Shown: positions 13,310 through 62,239 of the stretch, piece by piece
Numbering within the stretch: position 1 is the stretch's first letter
Layout of the letters: every line of letters begins with the position of its first letter
Origin: Candidatus Micrarchaeia archaeon
GTDB lineage: Archaea; Micrarchaeota; Micrarchaeia; Burarchaeales; JAVZCV01
Direction of reading: 5' to 3'
Length of the DNA: 63,569 nucleotides
NCBI GenBank assembly: GCA_038874215.1
Contig: JAVZCV010000001.1
Location: 98,427-161,995 of the forward strand
Notes under the pieces: model-generated
Told to the model about the DNA's origin: nothing
What the model saw: only the letters and a program-made list of their open reading frames with translations
The model's database searches: none
Position numbers and translations under genes: made by a program

Positions 13310-13508
13310 GCTGGGATCGCCTAGCGGTTCAGGCTTTGTAGCTAAAAGCTTGAGCAAAGAACAAAGCTTGCGTTAAAGGGCGGCAGCCTGCTATGTTCCT
13401 TCCTGCGTGGAAAGGAAAAGCAGCAAGCTGTTTGGCCATTCGGCCATCGTGGGTTCGAAAGAGTCGCCCATTCATAAACTGCCTCGTCCGAAAATCCCAC
13501 TCCCAGCG
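13310..13508 (+). tRNA. tRNA-Ser(GCU) with three predicted introns
   Basis: Acceptor GCTGGGA/TCCCAGC plus discriminator G. D-arm GCC-TAGCGGTTCA-GGC. Anticodon stem GCAGC/GCTGT with loop CT-GCT-A|A. Long variable arm TTGGCCATTCGGCCATC. T-stem GTGGG/CCCAC. Exons about 13310-13334, 13382-13393, 13426-13459, 13495-13508 (85 nt mature). Introns about 47, 32 and 35 nt. Confidence 0.8.
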
Positions 13509-13510
13509 CT

Positions 13511-13527
13511 TAATTATTTTTTTCTCT
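13511..13527 (+). terminator. oligo-T tract downstream of SRP RNA/tRNA-Ser
   Basis: TAATTATTTTTTTCTCTT immediately 3' of the tRNA; archaeal termination commonly occurs at T-runs. Confidence 0.4.
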
Positions 13528-13570
13528 TAATATGCAACATCTGCGAGCATGGGCTGACGACTCTGATACA

Positions 13571-13578
13571 TTTAAAAT
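13571..13578 (+). promoter_or_regulatory. TATA-box candidate for tRNA-Ile
   Basis: TTTAAAAT about 30-35 nt upstream of the tRNA 5' end. Confidence 0.4.
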
Positions 13579-13607
13579 CCTCACACGCATAACGTTATCC
13601 GTCATGC

Positions 13608-13682
13608 GGGCCCATAGCTTAGCCTGGTTGGAGCGCTCGGCTGATAACCGGGAGGTCGCCGGTTCGAATCCGGCTGGGCCCA
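13608..13682 (+). tRNA. tRNA-Ile(GAU), intron-less
   Basis: Clean cloverleaf: acceptor GGGCCCA/TGGGCCC+A, D-stem GCTT/GAGC, anticodon stem CTCGG/CCGGG with loop CT-GAT-AA, T-arm GCCGG-TTCGAAT-CCGGC. Confidence 0.93.
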
Positions 13683-13750
13683 CTAATTGTAGATTCCTTT
13701 ATATACTTTTTTTACCATAATATTATCTAAAACGATTTGCGGGTTATTGA

Positions 13751-14941
13751 ATGGATGAAAAGAAAAGAGGTAAGGATATTTTTTACAAGGATTTAGAGCG
13801 GGAGATAGAAGGGAGGAATGTTTCGGTAGGGTTTGAAAGAAAAGGGGATAGGCTGATAATAAAGGCTGAGAAGGTTAGGGGGAATGTAGAAAGCATAAAA
13901 CGCGCGATAAAGGAGCAGGTAGAAAAAAGGCGTGGGGACAACGAATTTTTACAGCTTGTTGAAGAAATTGAGAGAGATATATCAAAAATAGAGGGAGAGT
14001 TGCGCATACTTAGAAAAAAACTGGAAGTTTTGCGCTTCGCTGCAGAGGAGTATGTCTCCGAGCCAGCTGCGGGTAGAAGTGAGGGCGAGGATGAGGAACA
14101 AAGTGAGGCAGTTGTGTATGCTGTTGCTACTGGGAAAAAAAAGGAGTTTGAGGCTGGAAGAAATGAAAATAATGGTAATCCGGGGATGCACGCAGTGAAT
14201 TCAAAAAAACAAAGGCCCGAAATTCCGCCCGCACCAGACTACATACCCGTAATAGAGTTTAGTTCTTCTTCTGATGAAGAAAAAGGTGTGAGGGTTGAGT
14301 CTGGCTGGAGAGACCTATATCCCGAGAATACGGTGGCATTCAACACTGATTTCATGATGGGAATAGAGAAAGTAGGTATAGCGGAGGAAAAGAAGGGGGA
14401 GGAGCGAGTCCTTGAGATAAACGAGAGAATAGCAAGGGAGATTGCAAGCATTGCAGAATTCGGAGTGCAGAAGGAGAGCGAATCTCCTTTTGAAGGTTTT
14501 TTTGGAAGCGTCTCTTCTGTTATATCGTCTTTTGTAGCGTACCCTTCAAAGTTTTTGGGTAAGAAGGAGAGCTCCGAGGCTCAGGAGTGGAAAGCCGGCA
14601 TGGAGCCTGTGGGGAGAGAGAGTTATGACGGCAGTTTTGAAAAAGCACAGACAAGCACTGAAACGTATCCTGTAGAAGAATCGTTAGAAAAGCCGATAAC
14701 GATGCCCGAGGCACCCGAATATGTTCCTCAGATAACTGAATTTGACATATTTCGGGGGAAGTATCTTAGCTTGCAGTCAAACAGGGCGCTTACAGTAGAG
14801 GAGATTGCAAGGATTACGGGGGATAACGAAGCGGATGTGAAGGGGTGGCTAACAAGACTTGTAGGTGAAGGGGTTGTAAAAAAAGTAAAAAGAAGAAAGA
14901 AGGGCGCATATGTAGATGCGTATATTATTTTAGAAAAATAG
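13751..14941 (+). CDS. hypothetical acidic protein with N-terminal coiled coil and C-terminal winged-helix-like domain
   Basis: 396-aa ORF. Charged heptad-like N-terminus, low-complexity E/S-rich middle, C-terminus LTVEEIARITGDNEADVKGWLTRLVGEGVVKKV resembling a wHTH. Confidence 0.6.
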   Translation: MDEKKRGKDIFYKDLEREIEGRNVSVGFERKGDRLIIKAEKVRGNVESIKRAIKEQVEKRRGDNEFLQLVEEIERDISKIEGELRILRKKLEVLRFAAEEYVSEPAAGRSEGEDEEQSEAVVYAVATGKKKEFEAGRNENNGNPGMHAVNSKKQRPEIPPAPDYIPVIEFSSSSDEEKGVRVESGWRDLYPENTVAFNTDFMMGIEKVGIAEEKKGEERVLEINERIAREIASIAEFGVQKESESPFEGFFGSVSSVISSFVAYPSKFLGKKESSEAQEWKAGMEPVGRESYDGSFEKAQTSTETYPVEESLEKPITMPEAPEYVPQITEFDIFRGKYLSLQSNRALTVEEIARITGDNEADVKGWLTRLVGEGVVKKVKRRKKGAYVDAYIILEK

Positions 14942-14945
14942 AGGG

Positions 14946-16622: not shown

Positions 16623-16743
16623 GATAACCCCTTATGACTACCTCTGCGCCCATGATTTATGTTCATTCTAGGAGTCCCGAATTTTAAATATATGCGCCCC
16701 CAGCGGACGATGCAAATGGAAATATGCGTGAGACGCCCATAAC

Positions 16744-17394: not shown

Positions 17395-17541
17395 TGCTAG
17401 TGGATTGCATAAAAATATATAAAAAAGCTCCAGAGAGCGCTGCTCTGGCAGGAATACTTCGGCAACGCGATAGATTTATTAATGTGAATGGGTAAGTAGT
17501 ATGTGTCTTATTTCTGCATAGGAGATTTTCGGAGTGATAAA

Positions 17542-27802: not shown

Positions 27803-27915
27803 TAGCCCCGAGAGGATTTCCGCTCAAAAGCCAGTATCGGTTTATTTTTTTGGAATTTCGAACCTCTGTGACTGGGTCCAGAGCCCAGTATCCTTGACCG
27901 CTAGATGACGGGGCT
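27803..27915 (-). tRNA. tRNA-Gln(CUG) with a 40-nt intron in the T-loop
   Basis: Minus strand: acceptor AGCCCCG/CGGGGCT+A, D-arm ATCT-AGCGGTCAA-GGAT, anticodon stem CTGGG/CCCAG with loop CT-CTG-GA, T-stem AGAGG/CCTCT. The T-loop TTCGAA|T is interrupted by plus-strand 27817-27856. Confidence 0.85.
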
Positions 27916-28546: not shown

Positions 28547-29437
28547 ATGAAAGTTAAAAACCTTCTTATCGGCATAACTGTTTTTCTTCTTGTTATCGTT
28601 ATTGTTGCGATAGGGTTGGTGTTAGTTATACCTGTGGCAGCGCCATCTCCCTGTGTAGGTGTTATAGAAGTGGATGGGCAAATAACCCTTAAAAAGCAAT
28701 CATACGGACTTTTTGAAACTCAGGGAATTTCAGCTGAGGAGATAGAGGAGATGATAGGGGAGGCAGAGATGAGGGACGATATAAAGGCTGTTGTATTTGA
28801 GATAAATTCGCCAGGCGGGTCTGTCGTTGCAACAAGAGAGATGTATGAGAATGTGAAAAGCCTGAAAAAGCCAAAGGTAGCATACCTACGAGAAATCGCC
28901 GCCTCGGGAGGATACTATGTTGCGGTTGGAACCGACTACATAGTCACCGATCCCGATGCGATTACGGGCAGCATTGGAGTTAGAGCTACATTTGAAGACT
29001 TGTCTGGACTATTTGAAAAGTTGGGTATAAATGTAACCACAATAAAATCAGGGGAGAAGAAAGACATCGGCGACCCGACGAGGCCGCTGAGCGAGGAGGA
29101 GAGAGCGATATTGCAGGGAATAGTTGATGAGATATTTCTTGAGTTTAGAGAAGATGTGAGGGAGAGCAGGGGAAGTCGGCTGAACAGCACGGCGTTCGCA
29201 GAGGTTCTTGATGGGAGGATATTAACAGGAAGACAGGCGAAAAGAGTGGGGCTTGTAGATGAGGTAGGCAACAAAAAAACCGCAATTAGGGTTGCGGGAC
29301 GGATGGCGGGCATTGAAGGTGAACCAAGGGTATGCAAGATAGAGCGGAGGGTTGGCCTTTGGGAAAGCATGCTGTCTGGTTTGGCCCGTGTGCTTCCATT
29401 AGAGAACTCACAGAGGATAAACCTGTATTTTTCTTAA
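28547..29437 (+). CDS. sppA: signal peptide peptidase SppA, 36K type (S49)
   Basis: EINSPGGSV and AASGGYY motifs, N-terminal TM anchor. Start set to the ATG at 28547 (MKVKNLLIGITVF). Confidence 0.9.
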   Translation: MKVKNLLIGITVFLLVIVIVAIGLVLVIPVAAPSPCVGVIEVDGQITLKKQSYGLFETQGISAEEIEEMIGEAEMRDDIKAVVFEINSPGGSVVATREMYENVKSLKKPKVAYLREIAASGGYYVAVGTDYIVTDPDAITGSIGVRATFEDLSGLFEKLGINVTTIKSGEKKDIGDPTRPLSEEERAILQGIVDEIFLEFREDVRESRGSRLNSTAFAEVLDGRILTGRQAKRVGLVDEVGNKKTAIRVAGRMAGIEGEPRVCKIERRVGLWESMLSGLARVLPLENSQRINLYFS

Positions 29438-29481
29438 AAAATCTCAAAAGGTTTATAATTGTGGATGGAGCATCTTATTCT

Positions 29482-30717
29482 ATGGAAAAAGGGGAAGATA
29501 CGAGCTCATTTGTAGAACTGCTTTTTGATAATTTTGGGGAAAGTGGGATTGAAGTGTATTGGCGCTTTTTGATGGGGGAGAGCCCCGAAGAGATAATGCT
29601 TGCCATGCGTTTGAGCGAAGCGCAGACGTTTAGAATTATTGAGTTCATAAAAAACATGAAGGGAGATGTTGGTGGGCTCTTTTATGGTGAGAAGAAACCA
29701 TGGGTAAAAAAGTACAAGGGTGAGGACGTTTTTTTGGAGATTAAAGAGGAGAAGGTAGGGATACGTGAGGATGCAGAAGTTATACATGAGGCGAGAATGG
29801 AGGACATGAAAAACGAACTGCTTGTGTATGGGCGCTTTGGTTCAAACGGTTTGAAAGCATGGGCCATGCTCCTTGCAGGTAGGAACCTAGGGGAGGTGAT
29901 AGCTAATACAGGCATGAGTGCTCTTGAGATAGGGAGGATGATAGAGTATCTGGTCTCTCCAAAAATAGAGATAGAGGAAAGCAAGGAGCAGATGGGAGAA
30001 ACAGAGACAGAAAAAAAAGAGATGGTGGAAGATGAAAGCCTCTACACTTCAAAGACTCTTGTAACCGCTATTCGGCCTGGTGTTGCTCCTTTCTCACTAC
30101 GAGATAGTTATGATATGCCTCTCTTTGATAGAAGTAGGGTTAGAGGTACAGACATCTTTAAACTCCAAATATTGATAATTGTGGGTGTCATTCTTCTTCT
30201 TATACTTATATACTTTTATTTTAAACCTCTTGTGAGCCCGACGAGCGTGGTAGTAGAACCAAGATTAACGATGAGTAGTGATAAAGACCGCTATTTATTT
30301 AACGAGAGTGTAAGAATTTTTGGCTCTGCGATAAACTGTGGCAATAACGTCAGTATATATGTTTCGGGGAATTTTTTGGATGAAGTTGCTGTTGAAGATG
30401 GGCATTATTCAAAGAGCATGCAGGGGCTCTCACCAGGCCAGCACGAGATAACGGCAAAATGTGGAAACACCACTACCACCCTATCCATTCTGGTTTTTGA
30501 ACCAGAATGTAGTGAGGGGGTTGTCGCTCCTTGCATTGATTCGCTTGGGTGCAGCGGTACAAGAACGTGTAGAAATGGCCGATGGACGGCATGCTACGTG
30601 AGAAGGATATGTACGCCTGGGGAAGAAGTAGGTTGCATGATGCCAGATGGCTGCAGTTTTGGAAAGAAAGTATGCAATGAGTGCGGGACGGATTTTGGAC
30701 CGTGTAGGCGGGTATGA
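29482..30717 (+). CDS. membrane-anchored protein: duplicated cytoplasmic HTH-like module, one TM, Ig-like plus Cys-rich ectodomain
   Basis: Repeat LLFDNFGESGIEVYWRFLMGESPEEIMLAMRLSEAQTFRIIEFI versus LLVYGRFGSNGLKAWAMLLAGRNLGEVIANTGMSALEIGRMIEYL. TM ILIIVGVILLLILIYFYF. 11 Cys in the last ~66 residues. TATA-like TTTATAAT about 25 nt upstream of the ATG at 29482. Confidence 0.7.
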   Translation: MEKGEDTSSFVELLFDNFGESGIEVYWRFLMGESPEEIMLAMRLSEAQTFRIIEFIKNMKGDVGGLFYGEKKPWVKKYKGEDVFLEIKEEKVGIREDAEVIHEARMEDMKNELLVYGRFGSNGLKAWAMLLAGRNLGEVIANTGMSALEIGRMIEYLVSPKIEIEESKEQMGETETEKKEMVEDESLYTSKTLVTAIRPGVAPFSLRDSYDMPLFDRSRVRGTDIFKLQILIIVGVILLLILIYFYFKPLVSPTSVVVEPRLTMSSDKDRYLFNESVRIFGSAINCGNNVSIYVSGNFLDEVAVEDGHYSKSMQGLSPGQHEITAKCGNTTTTLSILVFEPECSEGVVAPCIDSLGCSGTRTCRNGRWTACYVRRICTPGEEVGCMMPDGCSFGKKVCNECGTDFGPCRRV

Positions 30718-31514
30718 ACATGGGTGCAAAAAAGGCGTTTGTGTTCACAATTGATGCTTTCATATCGCTTACCATAGCGGTGATAATAATCTTTGCGATG
30801 TTGCTTCTTATCCACATCCCCCGCATACATTATGCAACCTACGAGCAAGAGTACGAAATAGCAGGCGATACACTCAGGGTATTGGACACGCTTAGGATTG
30901 GGTATATAACTGAAAACCCACACTGGAGTAAGGATGCGGTGGCGAATGCCCTCGGTGCAGAGGAGAAACATAGCGTTCTTGAACAAATTGTTGCTTACGC
31001 ATCCCAGCCCGGTGGGCTTGATCCATATCGGGTGGATTGTAGCAACCCAGGCACAATCGCAACTGATTTTGCGTGTGATTTTTTGGAAATGATGATTCCG
31101 AAGAGGTATGGCTATAGTTTAGAGCTAAACAGATTTGGTGCGTGGGAGACGATTGCAAAGCGTGAGAAGGCATATAGAAAGCTGCAGGCAGTAAGCACGC
31201 GGATAGTTTATGGCCCTGCATATACGACGATAAGCGAGGAGGCATATGGAACCATTGACCCATTCAATCCGACAAGCGGTGCGGACATTGAACCGAGGTC
31301 TCTTTACGTGATTGAGGGCGAATCACCATACTGTTATATGAGATGCCGGGGGTACCTGGGTTTTGGGAATGCTTATAAGAGCAGCGATGGTAGGATAGAA
31401 TCCCAGTTCCTTGACCCTTGTACGAGGGACCCTTGTAATCCCCCGAGCAACCCCGTATATCGGAAGGGCAATATAATCGGACCGTATGTGGTCAGGCTTG
31501 TGGTGTATATATGA
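30714..31514 (+). CDS. type IV pilin-like protein (class III signal peptide)
   Basis: N-terminus MNMGAKKA|FVFTIDAFISLTIAVIIIFAMLLL. ATGA overlap with the upstream gene. Cys-rich C-terminus. Confidence 0.7.
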   Translation: MNMGAKKAFVFTIDAFISLTIAVIIIFAMLLLIHIPRIHYATYEQEYEIAGDTLRVLDTLRIGYITENPHWSKDAVANALGAEEKHSVLEQIVAYASQPGGLDPYRVDCSNPGTIATDFACDFLEMMIPKRYGYSLELNRFGAWETIAKREKAYRKLQAVSTRIVYGPAYTTISEEAYGTIDPFNPTSGADIEPRSLYVIEGESPYCYMRCRGYLGFGNAYKSSDGRIESQFLDPCTRDPCNPPSNPVYRKGNIIGPYVVRLVVYI

Positions 31515-34249
31515 AATGCTGTAGTAAGAAGGGATTCCTCTTCACTCTCCTTGTCTTTATAGTTCTTGTCTTTATCGTTTTCTTGGCTTACATAATGGTA
31601 AAAAATGTTGAAGAGAAGGAGAGAACAAGAGCTGAGGAGTTTAAGATAAAAACCCTTCTTTCTATTTCGCGCTCGCTTAGCAAAGAAGAGATAAACGAAA
31701 TGGCCAGAACCGCAAATACGCGCGCCCTCTACTGTTTCAACAAATACGTGTATTATAACGGTTACATTACTGATGAGGATGGTGATGGGAATATCGTTGA
31801 TGATGAGGTGAAGGATAAGATAGAAGAAATAATCGTTCGCGGTATAGCGGACCCAGAAAGGCCAGTAGAAAATTGCATGGGTGGAGCAGACTTGGAAACA
31901 ATAGTAAGCAAAATTGAAAGTAGTGTTGGCATCGTTGGTTTTTCTGCTGATGTAGACGTAGAAAACCTTCAGGTAGAACAGCAGGACCCGTGGAGTATAA
32001 AATTTGAGTACGACATGGTGATTAGTATCAGAGATAGCTCCCCAGAACCCAAGATGAGTTTGCACCGCAGAGTGCACGTAAGCAACAGGATTCCCATAAC
32101 AGGGCTTGTGGACCCTGTTACGGCATTGGAGAGCAGGAGTAAGACGCAGCACACAGGTATGGATAGGTTCATCAAGCAGATTTACTACCCAAAACGCATT
32201 CTTGTCTATACGAATGCGAGGGAAAATGATGCTGGGTTAAATGCAGAGTCCTTTAACAACGACCTTGTCAGAATTCTTGGTGAGCAAGGCTATACTGTAA
32301 CAGTCATGGACAGGTACGATGCCTCGGGTAATCTCAAAATAGATGCGAAGCTCACAGATAGCCTGCTCGCTAATTTTTCGCAGTTGTGGGTTATATCCTC
32401 TCGTGATTGCTCTGGTTGCAAACTTGATGAAGATGATCCTTTGGGGGAGATGGAGAGGGCAGCGGTAAGAAAGTTCCATAAACGCGGCAATGGGATAGCG
32501 CTGTTTTCATACGGGCATCCCCAGGATGCTAAGGTATTTGCCAACAGTATTCTTGAAGCTCTTGGGATGATGAGAAGTGACGGATATGCTGAGTTTGTGG
32601 ATGGGGAAGTTGATAGAAAAGATGGGATAAATTTAACCGAATCGGATATATCTTACAGTACCAGCTCGCCTATATTTTACAATGTTGATAGGATAAGCGG
32701 TGGTAAAAAGGAGGCGAAAATAGAGATTGCGCTATCCAACCCAAAGGCCGCACGCATTCTCTGGGACGAGCGTACGGGAAAACAAGGCAATGTTGTTGTG
32801 GTCGTGGACGAGGATACGGCTGGGGAGATTATAGGGGGCCGTGTTCTTCTTGATTCTTCTTTTACCAGATTGCGCGACGCAGATGTAGTGGCGACCGCGA
32901 GTGGTGCTTATGATGACGGGGGTATAACGGATTATGAGACTGCACAATACGCGGTTAACATCGCAGATTACCTTGCGAATAGTCCTCAGCGCCCACCCGA
33001 AGGGTATGTCATGCTCCTTACAGAGAAACATGGCGGTGATGGTTTAAGAATCCGTGGCAAAGGTTGGTTTTATGGAAATTGGACTGAAATTTTTGATGAA
33101 TATGCAAACATATTAGTAACGGATAACCCCAAGCACGTGTTGGAGGTTCTTTCTAATCCTAGTGATGCGAACTATGAGAAATACGTGAAATTCGGTGCCT
33201 TCATCATAACTGTGGAGCCGAGCATAGATGTGGGTAGAAGCGACCCAGGGACATACGATGATACTGGCACGCCTGGGACGGACTCATCGTGCAATTATCT
33301 TGGCGGAACTTTTGATGATGGTATGGGAAACACCTGTGATTATGAAGTTTATGCAGAAGATCCCAATGGCCCTGGGGGTTGTTTTGACTGCTTACGCTGG
33401 AGCAAAGGTTGTAGTGTAGGTGGTGTTACACACTGTGAATTAAAGCCAGAGGTCTGGGCTAACAGAATAGACAGGCCTTTTATAGTTTTTCCAGAGTTTT
33501 CAGACTATAAAGATAAACTTGAAACGTACAGGCACGGCATACTGATAGATACGCATACGTGGAAAAATGCTGATAATATTGATATGGATGATGTGAGGGC
33601 AGGGGACGATGATAACCCCGATTCACCGTCTAACGCTTACTGGCGCATATATGACATTGAAGGAATGCGCGAACTATCAGTGTGCCTGTTCTACGAGAGG
33701 AACAACAGCGCACCAAGTTTTCTTAAGAGGCACACCGTGCAGTGGGATGAAACAGGTAGCACGGATTTGGATGAAAATGGAATACAGAGTTTTGTAGTGT
33801 TCAGTAGGGAGGATACGAACAGATGGGACTACACGCGTGTTGATTACCTATTCTGGCGGGGAGAAGGCGAAAATCTCGTGAATACTGGGGGCGACCCAAA
33901 TGAAGACCCGGATAACCCGTCTCAACCGCCTAATCCACCGTGGCTCGGCGACAATAATGCTGTTCCTGGGGAATATGTGATAAAGGGCATGCCGGGTTGC
34001 AAATATTCTGCGATGTGTACGTGCCCCTTACTATCACCACTCAGATTGTTTAGGTTGAGTGGGGATGATGTAGAACGGTTCGGTATTGTCCAGAGCGTTG
34101 ACCACGATAATGATGCGAGTACTCCTCCTATTGATATAAACATCGCATGTAGGGATTACGTAAAAAACAAGGGACGCCCAGACGAGAAAACTTATAAGGC
34201 GGGTGCAGCATGCGTTGACGATGATTTCAAAGCGGCAAACTGTCCTTGA
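31511..34249 (+). CDS. giant (912 aa) pilin-like surface protein
   Basis: N-terminus MKCCSKKG|FLFTLLVFIVLVFIVFLAYIMV. ATGA overlap with the upstream gene. Large D/G/C-rich extracellular region. Confidence 0.75.
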   Translation: MKCCSKKGFLFTLLVFIVLVFIVFLAYIMVKNVEEKERTRAEEFKIKTLLSISRSLSKEEINEMARTANTRALYCFNKYVYYNGYITDEDGDGNIVDDEVKDKIEEIIVRGIADPERPVENCMGGADLETIVSKIESSVGIVGFSADVDVENLQVEQQDPWSIKFEYDMVISIRDSSPEPKMSLHRRVHVSNRIPITGLVDPVTALESRSKTQHTGMDRFIKQIYYPKRILVYTNARENDAGLNAESFNNDLVRILGEQGYTVTVMDRYDASGNLKIDAKLTDSLLANFSQLWVISSRDCSGCKLDEDDPLGEMERAAVRKFHKRGNGIALFSYGHPQDAKVFANSILEALGMMRSDGYAEFVDGEVDRKDGINLTESDISYSTSSPIFYNVDRISGGKKEAKIEIALSNPKAARILWDERTGKQGNVVVVVDEDTAGEIIGGRVLLDSSFTRLRDADVVATASGAYDDGGITDYETAQYAVNIADYLANSPQRPPEGYVMLLTEKHGGDGLRIRGKGWFYGNWTEIFDEYANILVTDNPKHVLEVLSNPSDANYEKYVKFGAFIITVEPSIDVGRSDPGTYDDTGTPGTDSSCNYLGGTFDDGMGNTCDYEVYAEDPNGPGGCFDCLRWSKGCSVGGVTHCELKPEVWANRIDRPFIVFPEFSDYKDKLETYRHGILIDTHTWKNADNIDMDDVRAGDDDNPDSPSNAYWRIYDIEGMRELSVCLFYERNNSAPSFLKRHTVQWDETGSTDLDENGIQSFVVFSREDTNRWDYTRVDYLFWRGEGENLVNTGGDPNEDPDNPSQPPNPPWLGDNNAVPGEYVIKGMPGCKYSAMCTCPLLSPLRLFRLSGDDVERFGIVQSVDHDNDASTPPIDINIACRDYVKNKGRPDEKTYKAGAACVDDDFKAANCP

Positions 34250-34259
34250 TGGTGTAAAC

Positions 34260-34820
34260 ATGAAAGCGCAGGCAAGCATTGAGATGATGACTGTTATAGC
34301 GTTCATGGCCATCGTGCTTGTACCGCTCATAGTTATTCTATACCATAACACGCAGAATAGCCTTGACCGCATAGCGGTTGAGAGGGCACAGGACACGGCT
34401 GCTATGATAAGCGAAATTGTTTTTGAGGTATGGGCTGAGGGCGGCATGTATAGGTTTGATGCGACAGACCCGACAAAGCCAAGCGCCACTGCGGAAGCTG
34501 TCAGGACGGTGATGGTGCCGCCGAGGGTCAAGATGGTTGCGGTTGGAAGCACAACACAGATAGATCCGAGCGATCCGAGCAATCACGAAAAGGGGAATGA
34601 GATTATTATATTCTTGGAGACTACTTCGGGTGTTATGCAGGTAGCGGTTAAAACAGTACCTGTGGTAAGGGAATCCGAAGACCCCAATAAACGCATAACA
34701 AAATGCGAAAACAGGTTTGGCGGAGGTGGAAAATACTGCTATGTCCCGTCAGGACCTATTAGGATAAGAGTTCGGCATGACCCCGTACAAAAAGATGTTC
34801 TTGTGGTGGAGAGAGCATAA
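34260..34820 (+). CDS. type IV pilin-like protein (class III signal peptide)
   Basis: MKA|QASIEMMTVIAFMAIVLVPLIVILY matches the archaeal class III signal consensus (K/R-G/A-Q-x-S-x-E). Lies 10 nt after the upstream stop. Confidence 0.75.
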   Translation: MKAQASIEMMTVIAFMAIVLVPLIVILYHNTQNSLDRIAVERAQDTAAMISEIVFEVWAEGGMYRFDATDPTKPSATAEAVRTVMVPPRVKMVAVGSTTQIDPSDPSNHEKGNEIIIFLETTSGVMQVAVKTVPVVRESEDPNKRITKCENRFGGGGKYCYVPSGPIRIRVRHDPVQKDVLVVERA

Positions 34821-34821
34821 C

Positions 34822-35364
34822 ATGAAAAAAGCACAAGCAGCGAATGAATTCGTTATGTTCTTCGGCTTTTTCCTACTCATATTCATGATTTTTCTTATAT
34901 TAGTAGTAGTTGAGGTAGGGGGGGAGGTAGACAGGGAAAAAAAGAGGCAGGCATACTACATAGTTGCGGATTTTGCAAGGGAGATAAACGATGCAGTTAT
35001 GTTGGGCGACGGCTACATGAGATACTACGAGTTTCCGCAAACAATAGCGGGGAATAGATACAACGTCACGATAAGACGCTCTGGTTTTGTTGAACTCTGC
35101 GTGATAGATGAAAGTAGCACGGCATGTTCACCTAAAAGTTTCTATGTATTCGCACCGTTGCTTATTAGAGATGGCTTTGAAGCAGATAATTTTGGAGATC
35201 CAGCTATAGACATTCTAACGTTTGATGGTGGTTTAAGTGTAGACCCTAAAGATGATGGGTGGATTGTGGATACGGTAATAGGGGATGGAGGAACCCAGCA
35301 TGATACTCTGGTGATTAAAAACGATAATGGGAAGATAAAATTAGGGCAGAAGAAAGTTGCATAG
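34822..35364 (+). CDS. type IV pilin-like protein (class III signal peptide)
   Basis: MKKA|QAANEFVMFFGFFLLIFMIFLILVVV; 1-nt spacer after the upstream stop. Confidence 0.75.
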   Translation: MKKAQAANEFVMFFGFFLLIFMIFLILVVVEVGGEVDREKKRQAYYIVADFAREINDAVMLGDGYMRYYEFPQTIAGNRYNVTIRRSGFVELCVIDESSTACSPKSFYVFAPLLIRDGFEADNFGDPAIDILTFDGGLSVDPKDDGWIVDTVIGDGGTQHDTLVIKNDNGKIKLGQKKVA

Positions 35365-36039
35365 GTGGTTATTTTGGAAAGGCGTTGGTTAAGGGCTCAA
35401 ATATACGCTCTTGATGCGATAATGGGTGCCATAATATTCACGATAACCCTATCGGTTATATTTTTCTACTGGTGGGCGATGGGTCCGATGCTCTATGACC
35501 AGAGGGAAGATATGAAGGCCGAGGCTGTACGTGCGGCAGGCATGCTAATGACATCCGGGAATCCAGAAAACTGGGATGAACTCGTCAATCCTAACGATTA
35601 TTCTACGTTTGGTGATGTAAGGCAGGTTGGGTTGATGAGAGATATGAATACGAACGAAATTAGCAAGGAGAAGATGGGTAATCTTACCGAGATGATAGGT
35701 TATAACACAATCGTAGGTCCGCCAGCTCTCGGACCAGGAAGCCCAGATTATGATTTTTATTACAAGGTGCGCGAGCTTTTAGGGATATCCTATCATTTCA
35801 ACATAACTATCGTTGATGTTGATGTTAGCAGTGGTGAAGAAAGGGAGAGAATAATAGCGAAGGCAGGTGTTTGCCCAAGACCCGATACCCCTGCAACAGG
35901 TTGCAGTTGCACAGTTAATGACGCATACTGCGTCTGCCGCCTCATGAATGTTGTCACTGTTGAGAGGAACATAATTTATGACGATGGAGCTGGCAAAAAG
36001 CCTGTTATTTTGAGGTTGCAACTCTGGTCAACCGCCTAA
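35365..36039 (+). CDS. type IV pilin-like protein
   Basis: GTG start abutting the upstream stop. The N-terminus ..RRWLRA|QIYALDAIMGAIIFTITLSVIFFYWW parallels the FTIDAFISL N-terminus of the 30714 gene. Confidence 0.65.
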   Translation: MVILERRWLRAQIYALDAIMGAIIFTITLSVIFFYWWAMGPMLYDQREDMKAEAVRAAGMLMTSGNPENWDELVNPNDYSTFGDVRQVGLMRDMNTNEISKEKMGNLTEMIGYNTIVGPPALGPGSPDYDFYYKVRELLGISYHFNITIVDVDVSSGEERERIIAKAGVCPRPDTPATGCSCTVNDAYCVCRLMNVVTVERNIIYDDGAGKKPVILRLQLWSTA

Positions 36040-36098
36040 TTCTGTCCGACATATGCCGAGGATAAGCGTATATACCAGAAAAAATAGATAGCATAGGG

Positions 36099-36677
36099 GT
36101 GGCGATGGTTTACGCAACTTCCCAGTCGCAGAAAGGAGGTATGGAAATACCGCATGGGGTGAAAAACGAAATATTGGCTGGTATAAACAATCTGCAAAAA
36201 ATAAAGCAGACGCTTGAAGCATACGAATGCGGGCATCCTGCATTTAGACCAGAAATAGAAAAAATAATCAATAGGATAGAGAGGCAGATGGAGGATTTGA
36301 GGAGGGAGGGAATAACAAGGGAGGAGTTAAACAGGATTTTGGAGTTTGTTAAAAATATCCAAGTGCAACCGATTGTCGTTGCTGCAAAAAGGGAGGCAGA
36401 AATTAGGGGTATGAAGCCAGCAACAGAAGGTCTGATGAATAGCGTCATGCATGAGGAGAGGAGAGGACATGAACCCGTCAGGATGACAAAAACGTTGCAG
36501 GGCGCCTTGATAGAACTCATGAATGCTGCGGCAAAAGATGGAACACAGACTGTTAGGCTTGTTTGCGATGAAAAGCTATGTGAGGAGATAATGAGAATTT
36601 TGAGGACACAGTTTGCTTGGCGACCGCCAAAAGAAATAAGTAGGAACGGCAATACGCTTACTGTAAATTTTTCGTAA
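36099..36677 (+). CDS. hypothetical protein
   Basis: 192-aa ORF (GTG 36099 or ATG 36105, preceded by AGGGGTGG). Helical, charged, no recognised motif. Confidence 0.5.
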   Translation: MAMVYATSQSQKGGMEIPHGVKNEILAGINNLQKIKQTLEAYECGHPAFRPEIEKIINRIERQMEDLRREGITREELNRILEFVKNIQVQPIVVAAKREAEIRGMKPATEGLMNSVMHEERRGHEPVRMTKTLQGALIELMNAAAKDGTQTVRLVCDEKLCEEIMRILRTQFAWRPPKEISRNGNTLTVNFS

Positions 36678-44245: not shown

Positions 44246-46081
44246 TCACTCAGCCTTGTCCTTTAATCTCAACCTTGGGAATATGCCTATCGCCTTTATT
44301 TCATCCAAGAGCAGTTTGAAGGCATAGCTCATCTCAACATAATGCAGGTCATTTGAATCGCAAAGCGGACAGTAGTCTATGTTTTTAACATGATCATGCA
44401 CTGCTATAGAACCGCACTGGTTGCATACGAGCTCCAAAGCCTTGTCGGACTCCTCAAGGAGGCGCTCTCTCAGCAGCATGCTCGCGCCATAGCCTATAAG
44501 GCAGTCTCTTTCCATCTCGCCAAACCTCAATCCGCCTTCCCTTGCCCTTCCCTCGGTTGGTTGATGGGTAAGCAGTTGAACAGGGCCTCTGCTTCTAACA
44601 TGCATTTTATTGGCAACTAGATGGTGCAGCTTCTGGTAGTATATGACACCCATAAAAACCTTTGACTCCAATTTCTCTCCGCTCAAACCGTCATAAAGCT
44701 CTTCTTTTCCATATTCATCAAAGCCATAGCTCTTCAGTATATCACAGAACTCCTTTTCCTTATCTCCTCCAAATGCGGTTCCATCACCTATTCTTCCTGT
44801 CATGCAAGAAGCCTTCGCACCAAGCATCTCTAGCATGTGGCCAGCTGTCATGCGTGAGGGTATTGCATGTGGGTTGATTATCAGGTCTGGAACTATTCCG
44901 CTTGAAGTGAATGGCATATCCTCTTGAGGAACGAGCAAACCTATTACTCCCTTCTGCCCATGCCTTGAAGCAAACTTATCACCCTGTTCGGGTATGCAGA
45001 TGCTCCGCACTCTAACCTTGACAAGCTTGTGCCCTGCGGGGTTTTCCGTGACGAGCACTGAATCAACTACGCCCGTGTCCCTCCCTTTAACAGTTACGGA
45101 GTTCTCGCGCTTCTTTTCTTCCGTTATGCCAAAGGACGACACTTCCTCAAGGAATCTTGGGGGTGATGTTTTTCCTATTAAAACATCCTTCGGTTTAACG
45201 ACGCTTTCTGGCTCAATTATTCCATCTTCTCCAAGATTCCTGTAAGTTTCCTCCTCTCTGTAACCTTGAACAACAGGCTGGGGAATCTCAAACTTATCCT
45301 TCTGACCACCTGGGTATTTCCTTTCCTCCGTCTCATAGGTTTTGTAGAATACTGAGCGTGCGAGAGCACGATCCACGCTGTTTCTGTTAAAAACTACTGC
45401 ATCGCCCATATTATAACCGAAATAACTCGTAACTGCCACGACGAAATTTTGACCCGCAGGCCTCTGGGACAGCCTTAGGGATTTATATGGGGAAGTTTGG
45501 ACGAGCGGTATTTGTGGGTAGTACATTATGTGGGCACGGGAATCCATGCGCAAGTTGAAGTTGCTCACATAAATTCCGAGGGACTGCTTGCTCATAGCGC
45601 ATGCCATTGTTATACGGGGTGAAGAATTGTATTCGGGGAATGGAAGCTGAGAAACTGTGATGCCCACGATTGATATGGGGTCTATCTCCAAATGCGTGTG
45701 CTCCTCAGTCAACTCCTCCTCTTTCATAGCAACGTATGCTTCCTCTTCCTCCTCAGCATCAAGCAACTCAACTACGCCCATTGAGAGAAGATGGTTCCAT
45801 GTAAGCTCCCCGTTGCGTATTTTTTCAGCTATTTCGGGCGTGAATTTGGATTTGCCGTTTTCAACGACGATGTATGGCCTGCGAGCCCTGCCGCTGTCTG
45901 TAGATATATGTACTTCGTTTGCTATGGGATTGTATGAAACATTTAGCTCAGGGTGGAGTTCTCCGCATCGCCTTTTTTGCCTAATTGTATTTACAAGTTC
46001 ATTTGGCTTCTGGTGGAAGCCAAGCAACCTTCCGTTCAGATATACCGCAGCTTTTTCCTCTTTTCCTTCGTTTTCCCCCAT
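44246..46081 (-). CDS. rpoB1: DNA-directed RNA polymerase subunit B' (C-terminal part of split RpoB)
   Basis: GDKFASRHGQKGV, GEMERDCLIGYGA, C-terminal Zn ribbon CNQCG..CPLC; 611 aa. Confidence 0.97.
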   Translation of the reverse strand: MGENEGKEEKAAVYLNGRLLGFHQKPNELVNTIRQKRRCGELHPELNVSYNPIANEVHISTDSGRARRPYIVVENGKSKFTPEIAEKIRNGELTWNHLLSMGVVELLDAEEEEEAYVAMKEEELTEEHTHLEIDPISIVGITVSQLPFPEYNSSPRITMACAMSKQSLGIYVSNFNLRMDSRAHIMYYPQIPLVQTSPYKSLRLSQRPAGQNFVVAVTSYFGYNMGDAVVFNRNSVDRALARSVFYKTYETEERKYPGGQKDKFEIPQPVVQGYREEETYRNLGEDGIIEPESVVKPKDVLIGKTSPPRFLEEVSSFGITEEKKRENSVTVKGRDTGVVDSVLVTENPAGHKLVKVRVRSICIPEQGDKFASRHGQKGVIGLLVPQEDMPFTSSGIVPDLIINPHAIPSRMTAGHMLEMLGAKASCMTGRIGDGTAFGGDKEKEFCDILKSYGFDEYGKEELYDGLSGEKLESKVFMGVIYYQKLHHLVANKMHVRSRGPVQLLTHQPTEGRAREGGLRFGEMERDCLIGYGASMLLRERLLEESDKALELVCNQCGSIAVHDHVKNIDYCPLCDSNDLHYVEMSYAFKLLLDEIKAIGIFPRLRLKDKAE

Positions 46082-46089
46082 TTAAACAC

Positions 46090-47556
46090 CTATTCCATAA
46101 AAACCCCAAGTTTTCTTATTTCCCTTTCAACTTCTGCCTCATCAACGCCTGTGGATATTTCACATAGAAGCGCCATGTTCTTCACAAGAGCGCATGAAGG
46201 TCCTTCTGGCGATTCGTTTGGGCAGAGCTTACCCCAGTGTGTCCCATGGAGGTCTCTTGCCTTAAAGTGGGGATGCTTTCTGCTAAGAGGCGAGATTATT
46301 CTCCTTAGATGGGATAGCATAGAGAGGTGGTTCGTTCTATCAAGAAGCTGGGATACGCCCGTTTGTCCAGCTATCCAGTTTCCCGTAGCCATAGAGTACC
46401 TTATACGTTCTGTAAGAGCATCGGGCCTGACAAGAGTCTGCACAACGAGCCTTCTTCCACGTGCATGTGCGCGCTCTATTTGATAAGCAACATCCTTAAC
46501 CAAGAACTGGAATGCATATCTGAATAATTCGTTCATAAGGTTTCCTGCGAGCTTTATTCTCTTGTTCGCATAGTGGTCCTTGTCATCTTCGGGAAGTTTT
46601 TTGTAAGCAACCCGTATCCCACGCTCCGCCATCTTGCAGAGGTAGTATGCCTTTGCAAGCCTGTCCTCAGGTTTAACCCCTATGTGGGGCAGGAGATAGC
46701 TATCAAGCAGTATCTCAGCTCTCTTCGCCCTATACTCCTTCGCTTGGCCTGGCGCAGCCTTCTTACCGATGTATTCAAGCGCATTTTCCTTATTGGTTGT
46801 TTCGTCAAGTTCTATATTTAGAAGAACATCGTTCTGAATGTAATCCTCGTTAGAGAAAGCGCTGATTATCTGCTCGTTTTTTTCCATGCCCAGCGCACGG
46901 AGAACGGCTATGAGCCTGAGGTCCTTTGGGGCGGCTGGAAAAACAACGACCATCGTGCCATCATACGCACGCTCAACTACGCAACGAGCCCTGAAACCAA
47001 GATTTGTTGAGAAGACTTTGGATGCAATTATTGCGCCGTCTTTCTCCTTTGAAACCATTATCCTATTCTGAGCCAGGTCTTCTATGCTTACGAGCACTCT
47101 CTCACTGCCGTTTATTATGAAGTAGCCGCCTGGGTCGTTCGGGTCTTCGCCCGCTTCAATCAGCTCGCTTCTTGTCATATTGCAGAGATGGCATAATTCA
47201 GAGCGCACCATGACGGGCAACTCGCCAATAAAAACCTCTGAGAATATTCGCCTTTCAACTCCTTCTATTACGGGTACCATTTCAAGGTATACTGGGGCAG
47301 CATATGTTAGGTTTCTCAGTCTTGCCTCCATCGGAGTGATGTATCTGTGTGAGCCGTCAGCCTCAACTATCATGGGTTTCTCAAGGCGCACTCTGCCAAG
47401 TTTCAGCTTATATCCCTCTATATTCGGCTCTATGTATCCAACGCTGTCTATTATTTCCTGAATGCCGGAGTTTACAAATTTATTGTATGATTCAAGGTGT
47501 TGCCGCACGAGGCTGTTTTGTCTGAAATATGCGTCGAGCAATTCGCTCATCAACAC
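46090..47556 (-). CDS. rpoB2: DNA-directed RNA polymerase subunit B'' (N-terminal part of split RpoB)
   Basis: 488 aa; DPGGYFIINGSERV and HPHFKARDLHGTHWGKLCPNESPEG motifs. Confidence 0.97.
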   Translation of the reverse strand: MLMSELLDAYFRQNSLVRQHLESYNKFVNSGIQEIIDSVGYIEPNIEGYKLKLGRVRLEKPMIVEADGSHRYITPMEARLRNLTYAAPVYLEMVPVIEGVERRIFSEVFIGELPVMVRSELCHLCNMTRSELIEAGEDPNDPGGYFIINGSERVLVSIEDLAQNRIMVSKEKDGAIIASKVFSTNLGFRARCVVERAYDGTMVVVFPAAPKDLRLIAVLRALGMEKNEQIISAFSNEDYIQNDVLLNIELDETTNKENALEYIGKKAAPGQAKEYRAKRAEILLDSYLLPHIGVKPEDRLAKAYYLCKMAERGIRVAYKKLPEDDKDHYANKRIKLAGNLMNELFRYAFQFLVKDVAYQIERAHARGRRLVVQTLVRPDALTERIRYSMATGNWIAGQTGVSQLLDRTNHLSMLSHLRRIISPLSRKHPHFKARDLHGTHWGKLCPNESPEGPSCALVKNMALLCEISTGVDEAEVEREIRKLGVFME

Positions 47557-48325: not shown

Positions 48326-49267
48326 TCAACCAGCGAGGTTTTTTGGATTTGGTTTCGCCACTTGAGGGACTGGAAAAACTGCAATCACGCTGCCCCTTAT
48401 CTGATTTTCTAACCACTCACGTGCAGCCTCTTGTGCTTTTTGAAGATGCAGTTTACCTTGCCTTTCCCCAAACATTTTTGCGATGTCTTCGGCATTCTTT
48501 TTTGCTTCTTCAAGTATCTGGAAGTACTGTGAGTAGTTCCTTCCTAGGTATTCCGCATACTCTGGAAGCTTTGCGCACTCCTCAAAAATGTACATGCCAG
48601 CCCTGACTGCATTATCAACCACATTTTTCCACTCTTCAAAAATCAGCCTGCATCGTTCATTCTCTTCTTTCTTGCGGATGCGGGCATTTATAAAGTTCTT
48701 AATGAGATGCGAAGCAAGATAAACACCAGATACAGCCGATACGCCCACGCCTATCCAGAAACTAGCACTTCCCACCGCATTCGCAGTTTCTATAAGATTT
48801 TTTATTGTCTCTACTATTCCTGTCAGCGTTACCGTTCCGGCAGCGACGAGCATTGCACTTCTCCTAAAATCGGACTCCTTTTTTATCTCCTCATCTCTTG
48901 TCTTAATGTAAGTTGTAAATAGTCTTTGCGAACTTATTAGGGATTCAAGATATGTTATGGCTTTATCAAGTATTTGATAACCGCAAGTGTCTCCGTTCGT
49001 CTTACATTCTTTCCTTCTTGCATACAAGTCTTCAAGTGTATGTTTTCCTATGGCTGCAACGGAATCGTCTGTTGGATCGCATAGTGTTGCAAGGCGAACA
49101 AATGTCAGTGCGGTTTCTTCTGGTGTTAGTGGCGGTTTTCTTGGCTCTTCAACCATTGTATTGCGGGATATAAAATATTTAGGACTTGTAGAATTTCCTC
49201 TTTGCAGCAAACGGGGTCCCCTACCTACAGGCATATGGCGGCTTGCTTCCAATGCAATCGCAGTCAT
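48326..49267 (-). CDS. hypothetical membrane-associated protein
   Basis: 313-aa ORF with two central hydrophobic helices and helical charged flanks. A TATA-like element lies about 28 nt upstream of the ATG. Confidence 0.55.
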   Translation of the reverse strand: MTAIALEASRHMPVGRGPRLLQRGNSTSPKYFISRNTMVEEPRKPPLTPEETALTFVRLATLCDPTDDSVAAIGKHTLEDLYARRKECKTNGDTCGYQILDKAITYLESLISSQRLFTTYIKTRDEEIKKESDFRRSAMLVAAGTVTLTGIVETIKNLIETANAVGSASFWIGVGVSAVSGVYLASHLIKNFINARIRKKEENERCRLIFEEWKNVVDNAVRAGMYIFEECAKLPEYAEYLGRNYSQYFQILEEAKKNAEDIAKMFGERQGKLHLQKAQEAAREWLENQIRGSVIAVFPVPQVAKPNPKNLAG

Positions 49268-49542
49268 ACCCCACCCCCTTGAGCCGCGTTATAAAATAAA
49301 CGTGTATGGGAGCTTTGTAGAAAACGACGAGATCGGTGGGGTCTATAAATAGCCAATCGTTTGAAGCTCAGGAATTTTCTGAACTTTCGCTGAGCTCTGA
49401 TCAGCACGCGGCCATTTAAAGACTGTCGGGACACGACCTATGCCCCCTCATCCAAGAGAGATATACAATGAAGTTGTATATTAAGGCAATAGTTTCTAAT
49501 GGAGGAGTAAGTAAAAGAAGATAAATTAGACATATGACGAAA

Positions 49543-57809: not shown

Positions 57810-57814
57810 CCAAA

Positions 57815-58912: not shown

Positions 58913-58959
58913 TCACAATATTTAAAACTTATATGGGAGATTGCTCATAGGGTGTCTGC

Positions 58960-59916: not shown

Positions 59917-59923
59917 TGGTTTT

Positions 59924-60490: not shown

Positions 60491-60494
60491 TAGC

Positions 60495-61055
60495 GTGGAA
60501 TGGCTGGAATTCAAGAAACGCAGGCTCGCGCTTCTTGAGAAAGACAAGCGAATAGATGTTGGAATCCTGCCCCTTCTCAGGTGTATAAATTCCTTTGAGG
60601 AGTTCTGCACCTCTTCCTCATGCGCAGGGAGAATAACTCTACTTTCAATCCTCAGCTCTAAAAAAGATGCCGAAATATATGCGAAGTGGCACGAGCCCCC
60701 CTCTTTTGAAGAGTTTGTTGAAAAACTATCGTCATACAGGGGGAGGAAGCCTCTCTGGTTCAGGTGCGAGCCCTTCATACTGCATGTTTTCGCAAGGGAT
60801 TTTGAGAGCGCGCTCAATTTCATGCGCATATGCAGGAGAGCAGGAATAAAGAGGGGCGGGATACAATTTTCGCGAGAATTTGCATTCATTGAGATAGAGG
60901 GTACGCACGGCTTTGCCCTTCCTGTAAAGGGAGGAGGGAAGCAGCTGGTCAGTAAAGGATATTTGAGGCTTATCGTAAATGAGGCAAACAAAAATTTGGT
61001 AAAAAACGCACTCCAGATTATGAGGCTTGAAGGAGAGCTTGAATCAGTGAAATAA
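60495..61055 (+). CDS. taw3: tRNA(Phe) wyosine-derivative methyltransferase Taw3 (TYW3 family)
   Basis: Characteristic FCTSSSCAGRITLL motif; about 186 aa. Confidence 0.8.
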   Translation: MEWLEFKKRRLALLEKDKRIDVGILPLLRCINSFEEFCTSSSCAGRITLLSILSSKKDAEIYAKWHEPPSFEEFVEKLSSYRGRKPLWFRCEPFILHVFARDFESALNFMRICRRAGIKRGGIQFSREFAFIEIEGTHGFALPVKGGGKQLVSKGYLRLIVNEANKNLVKNALQIMRLEGELESVK

Positions 61056-61086
61056 TTTTTATTTTTTTCTCTATACTCCTTTACTC

Positions 61087-61938
61087 ATGTTTGGTGCGAT
61101 AAGCAACGGATTTTTGCTGATGAAGCAGTCTTTCTCAGTGCTTATGAAGGACAAGGAGATACTCCTCTTTCCCATCATAGCTTCTGTTTTTACAGGGCTT
61201 GCCTTCATATCATTATTTGTGCCGTATGCTTTGCTTCTGGGGGTGCTTGGCGACTATGCGGAACCCGTTGCATTTCTGCTCTTGTTCCTATTTTATTTTG
61301 TAAGCTCTTTAATCACAATCTTCTTCAACGCCGCTCTTGTAAGCTGTGTGAACATAAGGTTCAGCGGCGGGGACCCGACTTTTATGGATGGGATAAGAAG
61401 CGCGCTTAGGCATCTCCCAAAAATAATCGTCTGGGCGCTTTTTGTTGCAACAGTCGGCCTGGCTCTCCGCATGCTTGCAAGCCTTGCAGAGCGCAGCAAA
61501 AGCGAAGCGATGAGGCTGATTGGCAGGATTGTTGTAAGTGCGCTTGGCGCTGCGTGGAGCGTTGCCACTTTTTTCGTTGTGCCTATAATTGTGCTTGAGA
61601 ATGAGAGCAATCCGCTCGCAGCAATAAAGAAGTCTGTCAATCTCGTTTTCCGCACGTGGGGCGAGAACGCAGTAGGCCAGGTTTCAATGGCGATTTTCTT
61701 CTTCATAGCAGGCATTCTTGGTGCTATACCGATTGTGATTGGCCTTTCGGTAGGCAGTTTGCTGTTTCTCATCCTTGGCATAGGCTTTGCGCTCATATAC
61801 TGGTTTTTGCTCGCAATACTCAACTCTGCCCTAAGCAGTATCTTTACCGTTGCGCTCTATCGGTACGCAACAACTGGCAAAGTGGTTGAGGATTTCAGCC
61901 CTGAGCTTGTCAGGGGCGCATTTGCCCCCCACCAGTGA
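61087..61938 (+). CDS. multi-pass membrane protein (DUF6159-like)
   Basis: 283 aa with 6 hydrophobic helices. The N-terminus MFGAISNGFLLMKQSFSVLMKDKEILLFP resembles that family as recalled. Confidence 0.6.
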   Translation: MFGAISNGFLLMKQSFSVLMKDKEILLFPIIASVFTGLAFISLFVPYALLLGVLGDYAEPVAFLLLFLFYFVSSLITIFFNAALVSCVNIRFSGGDPTFMDGIRSALRHLPKIIVWALFVATVGLALRMLASLAERSKSEAMRLIGRIVVSALGAAWSVATFFVVPIIVLENESNPLAAIKKSVNLVFRTWGENAVGQVSMAIFFFIAGILGAIPIVIGLSVGSLLFLILGIGFALIYWFLLAILNSALSSIFTVALYRYATTGKVVEDFSPELVRGAFAPHQ

Positions 61939-61968
61939 TTGAATCTTCCGCTTTTCCCAATCGGAGAA

Positions 61969-61980
61969 TTTTATATATTT
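61969..61980 (+). promoter_or_regulatory. TATA-box candidate for tRNA-Leu
   Basis: TTTTATATATTT centred about 27 nt upstream of the tRNA 5' end. Confidence 0.5.
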
Positions 61981-62001
61981 TAGTCTCAGTATTATTCTTG
62001 T

Positions 62002-62239
62002 GCAGGGGTGCCGGAGCCTGGTCAATTAGCCCTTTTCTTTCATGAAGAAAAGTGCTAAGACCCCAAAAGAAACGGGCAGACCAAACGGGGCAGACTCAAG
62101 TAAACTTTTCTTTCAAAAAGAAAAGTTTAATCAAAAGAAAGAGACATCTGCTGGCTTAGGCCTACGAGAGTTCAAAGAGAAACCGCCAGCGCGGTTTCCT
62201 CTACCTTCCAGCAACTCGGAACAAATCTCTCCCCCTGCA
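62002..62239 (+). tRNA. tRNA-Leu(CAA) with three predicted introns
   Basis: Acceptor GCAGGGG/CCCCTGC+A. D-arm CCG-GAGCCTGGTCAA|A-CGG. Anticodon stem GCAGA/TCTGC with loop CT-CAA-G|A. Variable arm TGGCTTAGGCCTAC. T-stem GAGAG/CTCTC with T-loop TTCAAA|T. Exons 62002-62025, 62085-62100, 62146-62176, 62226-62239 (85 nt). Introns about 59, 45 and 49 nt. Confidence 0.8.

Follow-up and report, generated by a model that had tools for sequence, protein, structure and literature searches.

Four tRNA genes lie in a 63,569-nt stretch of genomic DNA from a Candidatus (Ca.) Micrarchaeia archaeon (contig JAVZCV010000001.1; the whole analysed stretch is hereafter called the window), and three of them are interrupted by introns. 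The tRNA-Ser(GCU) gene occupies positions 13310-13508 on the plus strand, where three introns separate its four exons (13310-13328, 13377-13393, 13426-13459 and 13495-13508). The tRNA-Leu(CAA) gene (62002-62239, plus strand) also contains three introns, with exons at 62002-62025, 62085-62100, 62146-62175 and 62225-62239. A single intron divides the tRNA-Gln(CUG) gene (27803-27915, minus strand) into exons that carry tRNA positions 1-59 (27857-27915) and 60-73 (27803-27816). Only the tRNA-Ile(GAU) gene (13608-13683, plus strand), found by ARAGORN and matched by the Rfam tRNA model at 67.2 bits, is uninterrupted. Five of the seven introns occupy non-canonical positions and three lie in the T-loop, in a sample of only four genes. 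An earlier note on this DNA had described seven introns in four tRNA genes with tRNA-Ile(GAU) alone intact; direct reading, a custom bulge-helix-bulge (BHB) scan and the cloverleafs of the spliced products all bear this out, and the limits given for the region (13310 and 62239) are exact at both ends. The reported split of tRNA-Gln in its T-loop likewise holds, at 59/60, with the correction that the gene is on the minus strand.

The interrupted genes escape standard tRNA detection. The sole tRNA seen in the window by ARAGORN and by Rfam at gathering thresholds is tRNA-Ile(GAU), and ARAGORN reports nothing further there when anticodon-loop introns are allowed; at an 80% threshold it makes 110 calls, which were mostly spurious and were discarded. 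A census in the manner of SPLITS, with candidate-intron pairs, was impractical (~54,000 candidates per strand), and the genes were instead located by eye in the few non-coding gaps, together with the custom BHB scan. When spliced in silico, the Ser (85 nt), Gln (74 nt) and Leu (86 nt) products form complete ARAGORN cloverleafs at the default threshold; the program accepts all three (as Ser gct, Gln ctg and Leu caa) and none of the unspliced genes. The interrupted genes recur on the separately assembled Logan contigs L001 and L082, which are short fragments from the same organism, and the tRNA-Leu(CAA) copy on L001 is identical to that of the window. Self-splicing group I and II introns, which have a catalytic core hundreds of nucleotides long, were not found: the introns are only 32-59 nt long, and no Rfam intron family matches in the window even at E ≤ 10.

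Splice sites were assigned by a BHB rule: both strands of a 4-bp central helix run, at their 3' ends, into a 3-nt bulge that is cut after its second base. Three introns fit this rule strictly or nearly so. Ser intron 1 (13329-13376, plus strand; 48 nt) lies in the D-loop at 20/21 and forms a strict hBHBh' motif, with central helix AGCG/CGTT, bulges GT|T and AA|A, an outer helix of 6 bp in the custom scan and an inner helix of 10 bp; this BHB is the minimum free energy (MFE) fold. Ser intron 3 (13460-13494, plus strand; 35 nt) is a near-strict T-loop intron at 59/60, in which T54-G57 provide one strand of the central helix (TTCG/CGAA), the bulges are AA|A and AA|T, the 5-bp T stem is the outer helix, and the inner helix has 2-3 bp; here too the BHB is the MFE fold (-11.0 kcal/mol). 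The Gln intron (27817-27856, minus strand; 40 nt) is also near-strict at 59/60, with central helix TTCG/CGGA (one G-U pair), the same bulges (AA|A and AA|T), an outer helix of 5 bp and an inner helix of 3 bp; its BHB conformer has an energy of -5.9 kcal/mol, compared with -8.0 kcal/mol for the MFE fold.

The other four introns form relaxed motifs. Ser intron 2 (13394-13425, plus strand; 32 nt), at the canonical 37/38 position, has central helix CTGC/GCAG and a proper 3' bulge (CA|A), with its 5' site inside a 4x2 internal loop (BHB conformer -18.8 versus MFE -20.6 kcal/mol). Leu intron 1 (62026-62084, plus strand; 59 nt) is placed in the D-loop at 21/22, around central helix GGTC/GACC; both of its flanks are loops or a junction instead of continuous helices (-20.0 versus -23.1 kcal/mol). 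Leu intron 2 (62101-62145, plus strand; 45 nt), again at 37/38, has a central helix of CTC/GAG plus an A-A mismatch, a 3' bulge of AC|A and a 5' site within a large internal loop; it holds the hairpin AAACTTTTCTTTC/GAAAAGTTT, followed by AATCAAAAG. Leu intron 3 (62176-62224, plus strand; 49 nt) is a T-loop intron whose best BHB cut is at 58/59, where G53-C56 enter the central helix (GTTC/GAAC), both bulges are AA|A, and the outer helix GAGA/TCTC is in a shifted register; its constrained fold has an energy of -16.1 kcal/mol and its MFE fold -20.2 kcal/mol. Across the set, constrained folding places the BHB conformers 0-4.1 kcal/mol above the local MFE folds.

The T-loop is thus a recurrent intron site, in three of the three interrupted genes, although the earlier statement that Ser, Gln and Leu are split at one and the same point holds only in part: the position is 59/60 in Ser and Gln, while for Leu 58/59 fits best. 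In the Leu gene, the sequence alone permits a cut at 57/58, 58/59 or 59/60. A cut at 59/60 would define an intron spanning 62177-62225 and leave the mature T-loop (TTCAAAT) unchanged; this register was rejected because TTCA and AACA cannot form a central helix, and 58/59 is the most likely cut by BHB geometry. The T-loop introns had also been noted to end in a CGAAA-like string, interpreted as a mimic of the T-loop that leaves each junction ambiguous by 1-3 nt. This string is instead the complementary strand that pairs with T54-G57 in the central helix. That pairing removes most of the ambiguity and sets the Ser and Gln cuts at 59/60.

The ends of the 59/60 introns follow from this pairing. 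TTCGAA is its own reverse complement, and the partner of T54-G57 therefore reads CGAA; with the invariant T-loop as the exon strand of the central helix, a 59/60 intron is forced to end in CGAA, or in CGGA if one G-U pair is allowed, and then two bases of the bulge. The geometry matches that of the canonical 37/38 hBHBh' intron, in which a 5-bp stem also carries a 7-nt loop that is cut after its sixth base, and loop bases 1-4 also form the central helix with the 3' end of the intron. The two differ in that the exon strand of the 37/38 intron comes from the variable anticodon loop, whereas the 59/60 intron uses the invariant T-loop. The intron-end rule provides a simple and specific search handle: combined with tRNA-Gln exon anchors, in a pattern allowing a 12-42-nt insert after GTTCGAA, it matched at least 120 metagenomic contigs and recovered, in one scan, at least 120 interrupted tRNA-Gln genes built like that of the window. 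Among the 105 distinct tRNA-Gln genes listed, intron bases -6 to -3 are fully pairable with TTCG in 93 (chance expectation 3%), the commonest tetramers being CGAA (46) and CGGA (33). When 78 distinct sequences are aligned with the register fixed, 86.5% of the hBHBh' structure is paired; sliding the partner columns by 1-3 lowers this to 31-55%. Pairing in the central helix reaches 96.8%. Of the 15 pairs in the whole structure, 10 change on both sides, and the first three pairs of the inner helix each vary among four to six pair types, again with both sides changing. None of 500 shuffles (0.166) attained the observed covariation score of 0.442, and this covariation supports the helices flanking the central helix of the 59/60 motif in metagenomic tRNA-Gln.

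Several features of these contigs are recorded as side observations. At least 75 of the contigs L085-L204 (e.g. L086, L112 and L141), G+C-rich and mostly obtained from soil or peat metagenomes, carry near-identical tRNA-Gln(CUG) genes with a 34-nt intron at 59/60, whose stem shows many compensatory changes; this single lineage accounts for 75 of the sequences. In many contigs of low G+C content (31-47%), the D-arm or D-loop of tRNA-Gln holds a further intron besides that at 59/60, at varying positions and 12-190 nt long (L092, L093, L099, L109, L117, L143, L146, L152, L155, L161, L176, L178, L179, L192 and others). A generic regular-expression search for T-loop introns across all fetched loci returned mainly false positives in bacterial contigs and was set aside. 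It did recover the tRNA-Ser of the window, and its sole likely new case is on L111 (~1220-1400): a 35-nt T-loop intron (TTCAAA|..|T) in a Leu-like tRNA of class II, near the interrupted tRNA-Gln in the G+C-rich lineage.

Protein identities place the host in the Micrarchaeota (DPANN) at phylum level. All named relatives of the EF-2 encoded in the window are Micrarchaeota, at 66-73% identity, including Ca. Fermentimicrarchaeum limneticum (73%) and Ca. Burarchaeum (70-72%), with Anstonellales and Gugararchaeum also represented. RpoA', RpoB', RpoB'' and EF-2 are 72-77% identical to the proteins of the Ca. Fermentimicrarchaeum limneticum locus, an organism that NCBI assigns to phylum Microcaldota (the current name of Micrarchaeota) in kingdom Nanobdellati (DPANN). 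Placement relative to the Thermoproteales had been named beforehand as a point on which the significance of the introns would turn, and by EF-2 and Rpo identity the best relatives are all DPANN Micrarchaeota; the host therefore falls outside Thermoproteales, and the refuting condition set in the earlier note is not triggered. RNA polymerase subunit B is split as earlier described (overall 44246-47556, minus strand), into B'' (46090-47556; 488 aa) and B' (44246-46081; 611 aa). Both are 72-77% identical to the split genes of two relatives, the Ca. Fermentimicrarchaeum limneticum locus (L084, CP058998) and Logan contig L083, whose Rpb2-type genes show the same split, with Pfam domains Rpb2_1-3 and Rpb2_4-7. 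As a separate observation, some Micrarchaeota EF-2 homologues, such as P0025 (1249 aa) and P0031 (890 aa), carry Pfam domains of inteins or homing endonucleases (PF14528, PF14890); the EF-2 of the window (729 aa) contains no such domains.

The same two relatives encode tRNA-Ser(GCU) orthologues (L084, 291-407; L083, 466-582) whose exons align to those of the window. Neither gene is interrupted at the precise points of the 32-nt (37/38) and 35-nt (59/60) inserts of the window. This uninterrupted exon alignment, together with the spliced cloverleafs, argues that the inserts are not chance features. The D-loop intron at 20/21 is common to all three genes and measures 32-33 nt in L083 and L084, where its central helix reads AGTG/CACT instead of the AGCG/CGTT of the window, a compensatory change. 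With one intron in the relatives and three in the window, tRNA-Ser has therefore gained or lost introns within the phylum. At the EF-2 loci of the relatives, the tRNA-Gln neighbourhood of the window is not kept, and a scan of deoxyhypusine synthase contigs revealed no signal recognition particle (SRP) RNA or tRNA-Ser adjoining the loci of Micrarchaeota metagenome-assembled genomes (MAGs), with matches mostly from Planctomycetota.

The introns, their positions and BHB pairings, and the phylum that carries them, are established here, and the three loci are very probably functional Micrarchaeota tRNA genes interrupted by seven BHB introns that are spliced by proteins. In the proposed mechanism, four exon bases ending 2 nt before the 5' cut and four intron bases ending 2 nt before the 3' cut would form the central helix, and each cut would fall within the bulge or loop that follows its own central-helix strand in the 3' direction. 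At T-loop sites, the T stem would act as the outer helix and the near-universal T54-T55-C56-G57 as one central-helix strand. A splicing endonuclease (EndA) of broad specificity would then cleave the transcript, followed by ligation; no ligase was recognized among the scanned open reading frames (ORFs) of the window, where no search aimed at ligases was made. The T-loop may recur as an intron site because its conserved palindrome, together with any T stem, already supplies every tRNA with one half of a BHB.

The need for relaxed endonuclease specificity, proposed earlier, gains support from the four introns with relaxed BHB motifs, a kind of motif that according to published work requires a broad-specificity EndA (PMC3239211). 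By analogy, the enzyme is most likely the three-unit ε2 type known from Micrarchaeota. In vitro, the ε2 EndA of ARMAN-2 (Ca. Micrarchaeum acidiphilum) cuts out an hBH intron at 59/60 (PMC3239211); its structure has been determined (4FZ2; Hirata et al. 2012, PMC3488258) and its broad specificity reviewed (PMC6379350). A search with the ARMAN-2 EndA, most of whose sequence was rebuilt from a PDB alignment, gave 1,415 matches at E ≤ 1e-10. Of these proteins, the best 120 are ~370-405 aa long, the length of the ε type (an ARMAN-2-type ε protomer being defined as a protein of ~390 aa with αN-α-βC organization and the ARMAN-specific loop), and those named by organism are mostly Micrarchaeota. Four homologues of ε length (P0122, P0147, P0171 and P0236) carry source labels of Marsarchaeota or Nitrososphaerota, reflecting either misassigned bins or a wider distribution of the three-unit enzyme.

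Several points weigh against this interpretation. Four of the seven introns fit relaxed motifs only, and the cut sites of the Leu D-loop and T-loop introns are best-fit predictions. Neither Pfam searches of most ORFs nor tblastn with the M. jannaschii EndA found an endA gene in the 63.6-kb window, and the same tblastn query found none in any fetched locus; the ε-type EndA matches listed are nearest to ARMAN-2 (Micrarchaeales), and none is named from Fermentimicrarchaeales-like relatives or could be linked to the host of the window. The tRNA-Gln counts also exceed the number of independent observations, because the search pattern fixed GTTCGAA and TC and the members are related to each other.

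One alternative accepts the introns as real and holds that a strict EndA (α4 or α'2) suffices to remove them, making a broad-specificity enzyme unnecessary. Ser 20/21, Ser 59/60 and Gln 59/60 are compatible with this, as their 3-4-3 BHB motifs have helices on both sides and could be recognized by strict enzymes. However, in Ser 37/38 and the three Leu introns one flanking helix is missing or the central helix contains a mismatch, and such hBH and HBh' substrates are cut solely by (αβ)2 or ε2 enzymes according to published work (PMC3239211, PMC5829648), ε2 being the type for which this phylum is known. A strict enzyme is thus improbable. More improbable still is that these loci arose in assembly or are pseudogenes in decay, with functional tRNAs encoded elsewhere. 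All exon sets form complete cloverleafs with the correct identity elements, BHB-type pairing bounds every insert, the same sequences recur on the two separately assembled Logan contigs, and the position of the Ser D-loop intron is kept, with its compensatory change, in relatives at ~73% EF-2 identity. DPANN genomes are small and usually hold single copies of their tRNA genes, which also counts against functional copies elsewhere.

A further alternative leaves the splicing of these genes untouched and concerns only the origin of the introns: the recurrence in the T-loop would reflect copies of one mobile intron, not independent gains at a favoured site. There are grounds for considering mobility. 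Leu introns 1 and 2, in the D-loop and anticodon loop respectively, share CTTTTCTTTCA..AAGAAAAGT and CAAAAGAAA; their local alignment score of 36 was not reached in any of 2000 dinucleotide shuffles (mean 16.7, maximum 33), and by this similarity the two introns are paralogous. Leu intron 2 also resembles 59/60 introns of tRNA-Gln on the metagenomic contigs L132 (~5440-5480), L099 (~2600-2660) and L179 (~9930-9990, minus strand). They have in common a hairpin (AAACTTT..AAAGTTT) followed by A or C and ATCAAAAG, and score 38, 36 and 31, respectively (maximum-over-database null: mean 20.6, maximum 33; 0/200); a 19-nt block is exactly shared with the L132 intron. Related introns at different positions hint at intron mobility, and large-scale intron transposition has been published for Thermoproteales (Fujishima 2010, as cited in PMC4033280). 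In contrast, the three T-loop introns of the window show no detected similarity to one another beyond the obligatory CGAA or GAAC plus two bases, with all pairwise scores below 20. Copying of one mobile intron consequently seems a rather unlikely source of the T-loop recurrence, for which a structural predisposition of the site would be the better explanation. A broader idea, put forward tentatively, is that some families of BHB introns in DPANN archaea are mobile and pass among D-, anticodon and T-loops, within and between genes, with TTCGAA and the T stem as a docking site. If so, tRNA-Leu would represent transposition caught in progress, and tRNA-Ser would have acquired its additional introns (37/38 and 59/60) recently, as judged against Fermentimicrarchaeum.

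Some other features of the window deserve mention. An archaeal SRP (7S) RNA gene (13008-13305, plus strand) matches Rfam Archaea_SRP at 91.6 bits (E 3e-19; gathering score 96.5) and also Bacteria_large_SRP at 64.3 bits, above the gathering score of that family; it ends 4 nt upstream of tRNA-Ser, so the pair is probably co-transcribed. A deoxyhypusine-synthase-family protein (11805-12965) shares 60-64% identity with homologues in a few DPANN MAGs and 54-62% with those of many Planctomycetota and other bacteria, which suggests a bacterial-type enzyme or horizontal transfer. At E ≤ 1e-5, no Pfam match was obtained for seven consecutive ORFs at 29332-36677 (plus strand; 461, 266, 912, 205, 195, 224 and 192 aa), nor for those at 8003-10878 (minus strand), 13751-14941 (plus strand) and 48326-49267 (minus strand); among 5.8 billion proteins, the ORF at 13751-14941 matches only itself. 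A non-coding region of ~275 nt (49268-49542) contains the hairpin GAAGCTCAGGAATTTTCTGAACTTTCGCTGAGCTC, with no Rfam match and no tRNA.

The closest known system is that of ARMAN-2, where disrupted genes make up 56% of the tRNA set (Fujishima et al. 2011, PMC3239211). Its introns include an hBH intron at 59/60 in pre-tRNA-Cys and introns at 53/54 and 59/60 in pre-tRNA-Pro(GGG) (PMC3239211), and multi-intron tRNAs are listed for both ARMAN-1 and ARMAN-2 (PMC4033280). ARMAN-2 and the host of the window belong to the same phylum and have in common a high proportion of interrupted tRNA genes, several introns in some genes, introns at 59/60, a mixture of strict and relaxed BHB motifs, and the same background of a euryarchaeal-type split rpoB. 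The earlier note had treated the co-occurrence of dense tRNA introns with a split rpoB as unexpected. Since ARMAN-1 and ARMAN-2 are Micrarchaeota with published 59/60 introns, multi-intron tRNAs and ε2 EndA, this combination is not unexpected, and is the published state of the phylum (PMC3239211, PMC4033280). The two nevertheless differ in several respects. The window probably derives from a different order-level lineage, with Ca. Fermentimicrarchaeum as its nearest named relative (~73% EF-2 identity), and other tRNAs are affected (Ser, Gln and Leu), two of them with three introns.

Thermoproteales provide the second comparison, with multi-intron tRNAs and large-scale intron transposition on record (Sugahara 2008; Fujishima 2010; both as summarized in PMC4033280). 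Like the window, they have up to three introns per gene, D- and T-loop positions, relaxed BHB motifs and similar introns at different positions. They belong to Thermoproteota and use an (αβ)2 enzyme, whereas the window represents a different lineage at kingdom level (DPANN) with a split rpoB, in which an ε2 enzyme would be expected. The window is thus a new example of a known Micrarchaeota phenomenon and not a new kind of system. What it adds is modest: the particular tRNAs affected, two three-intron genes far from ARMAN-2, intron turnover, and related introns across positions. Given that standard finders miss three of the four tRNAs in the window, automated annotation of Micrarchaeota would under-count tRNAs and may report false losses. 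The picture drawn from ARMAN-2 is hereby extended to a distant lineage of its phylum, and the paralogous introns offer a clue to the spread of BHB introns beyond the Thermoproteales.

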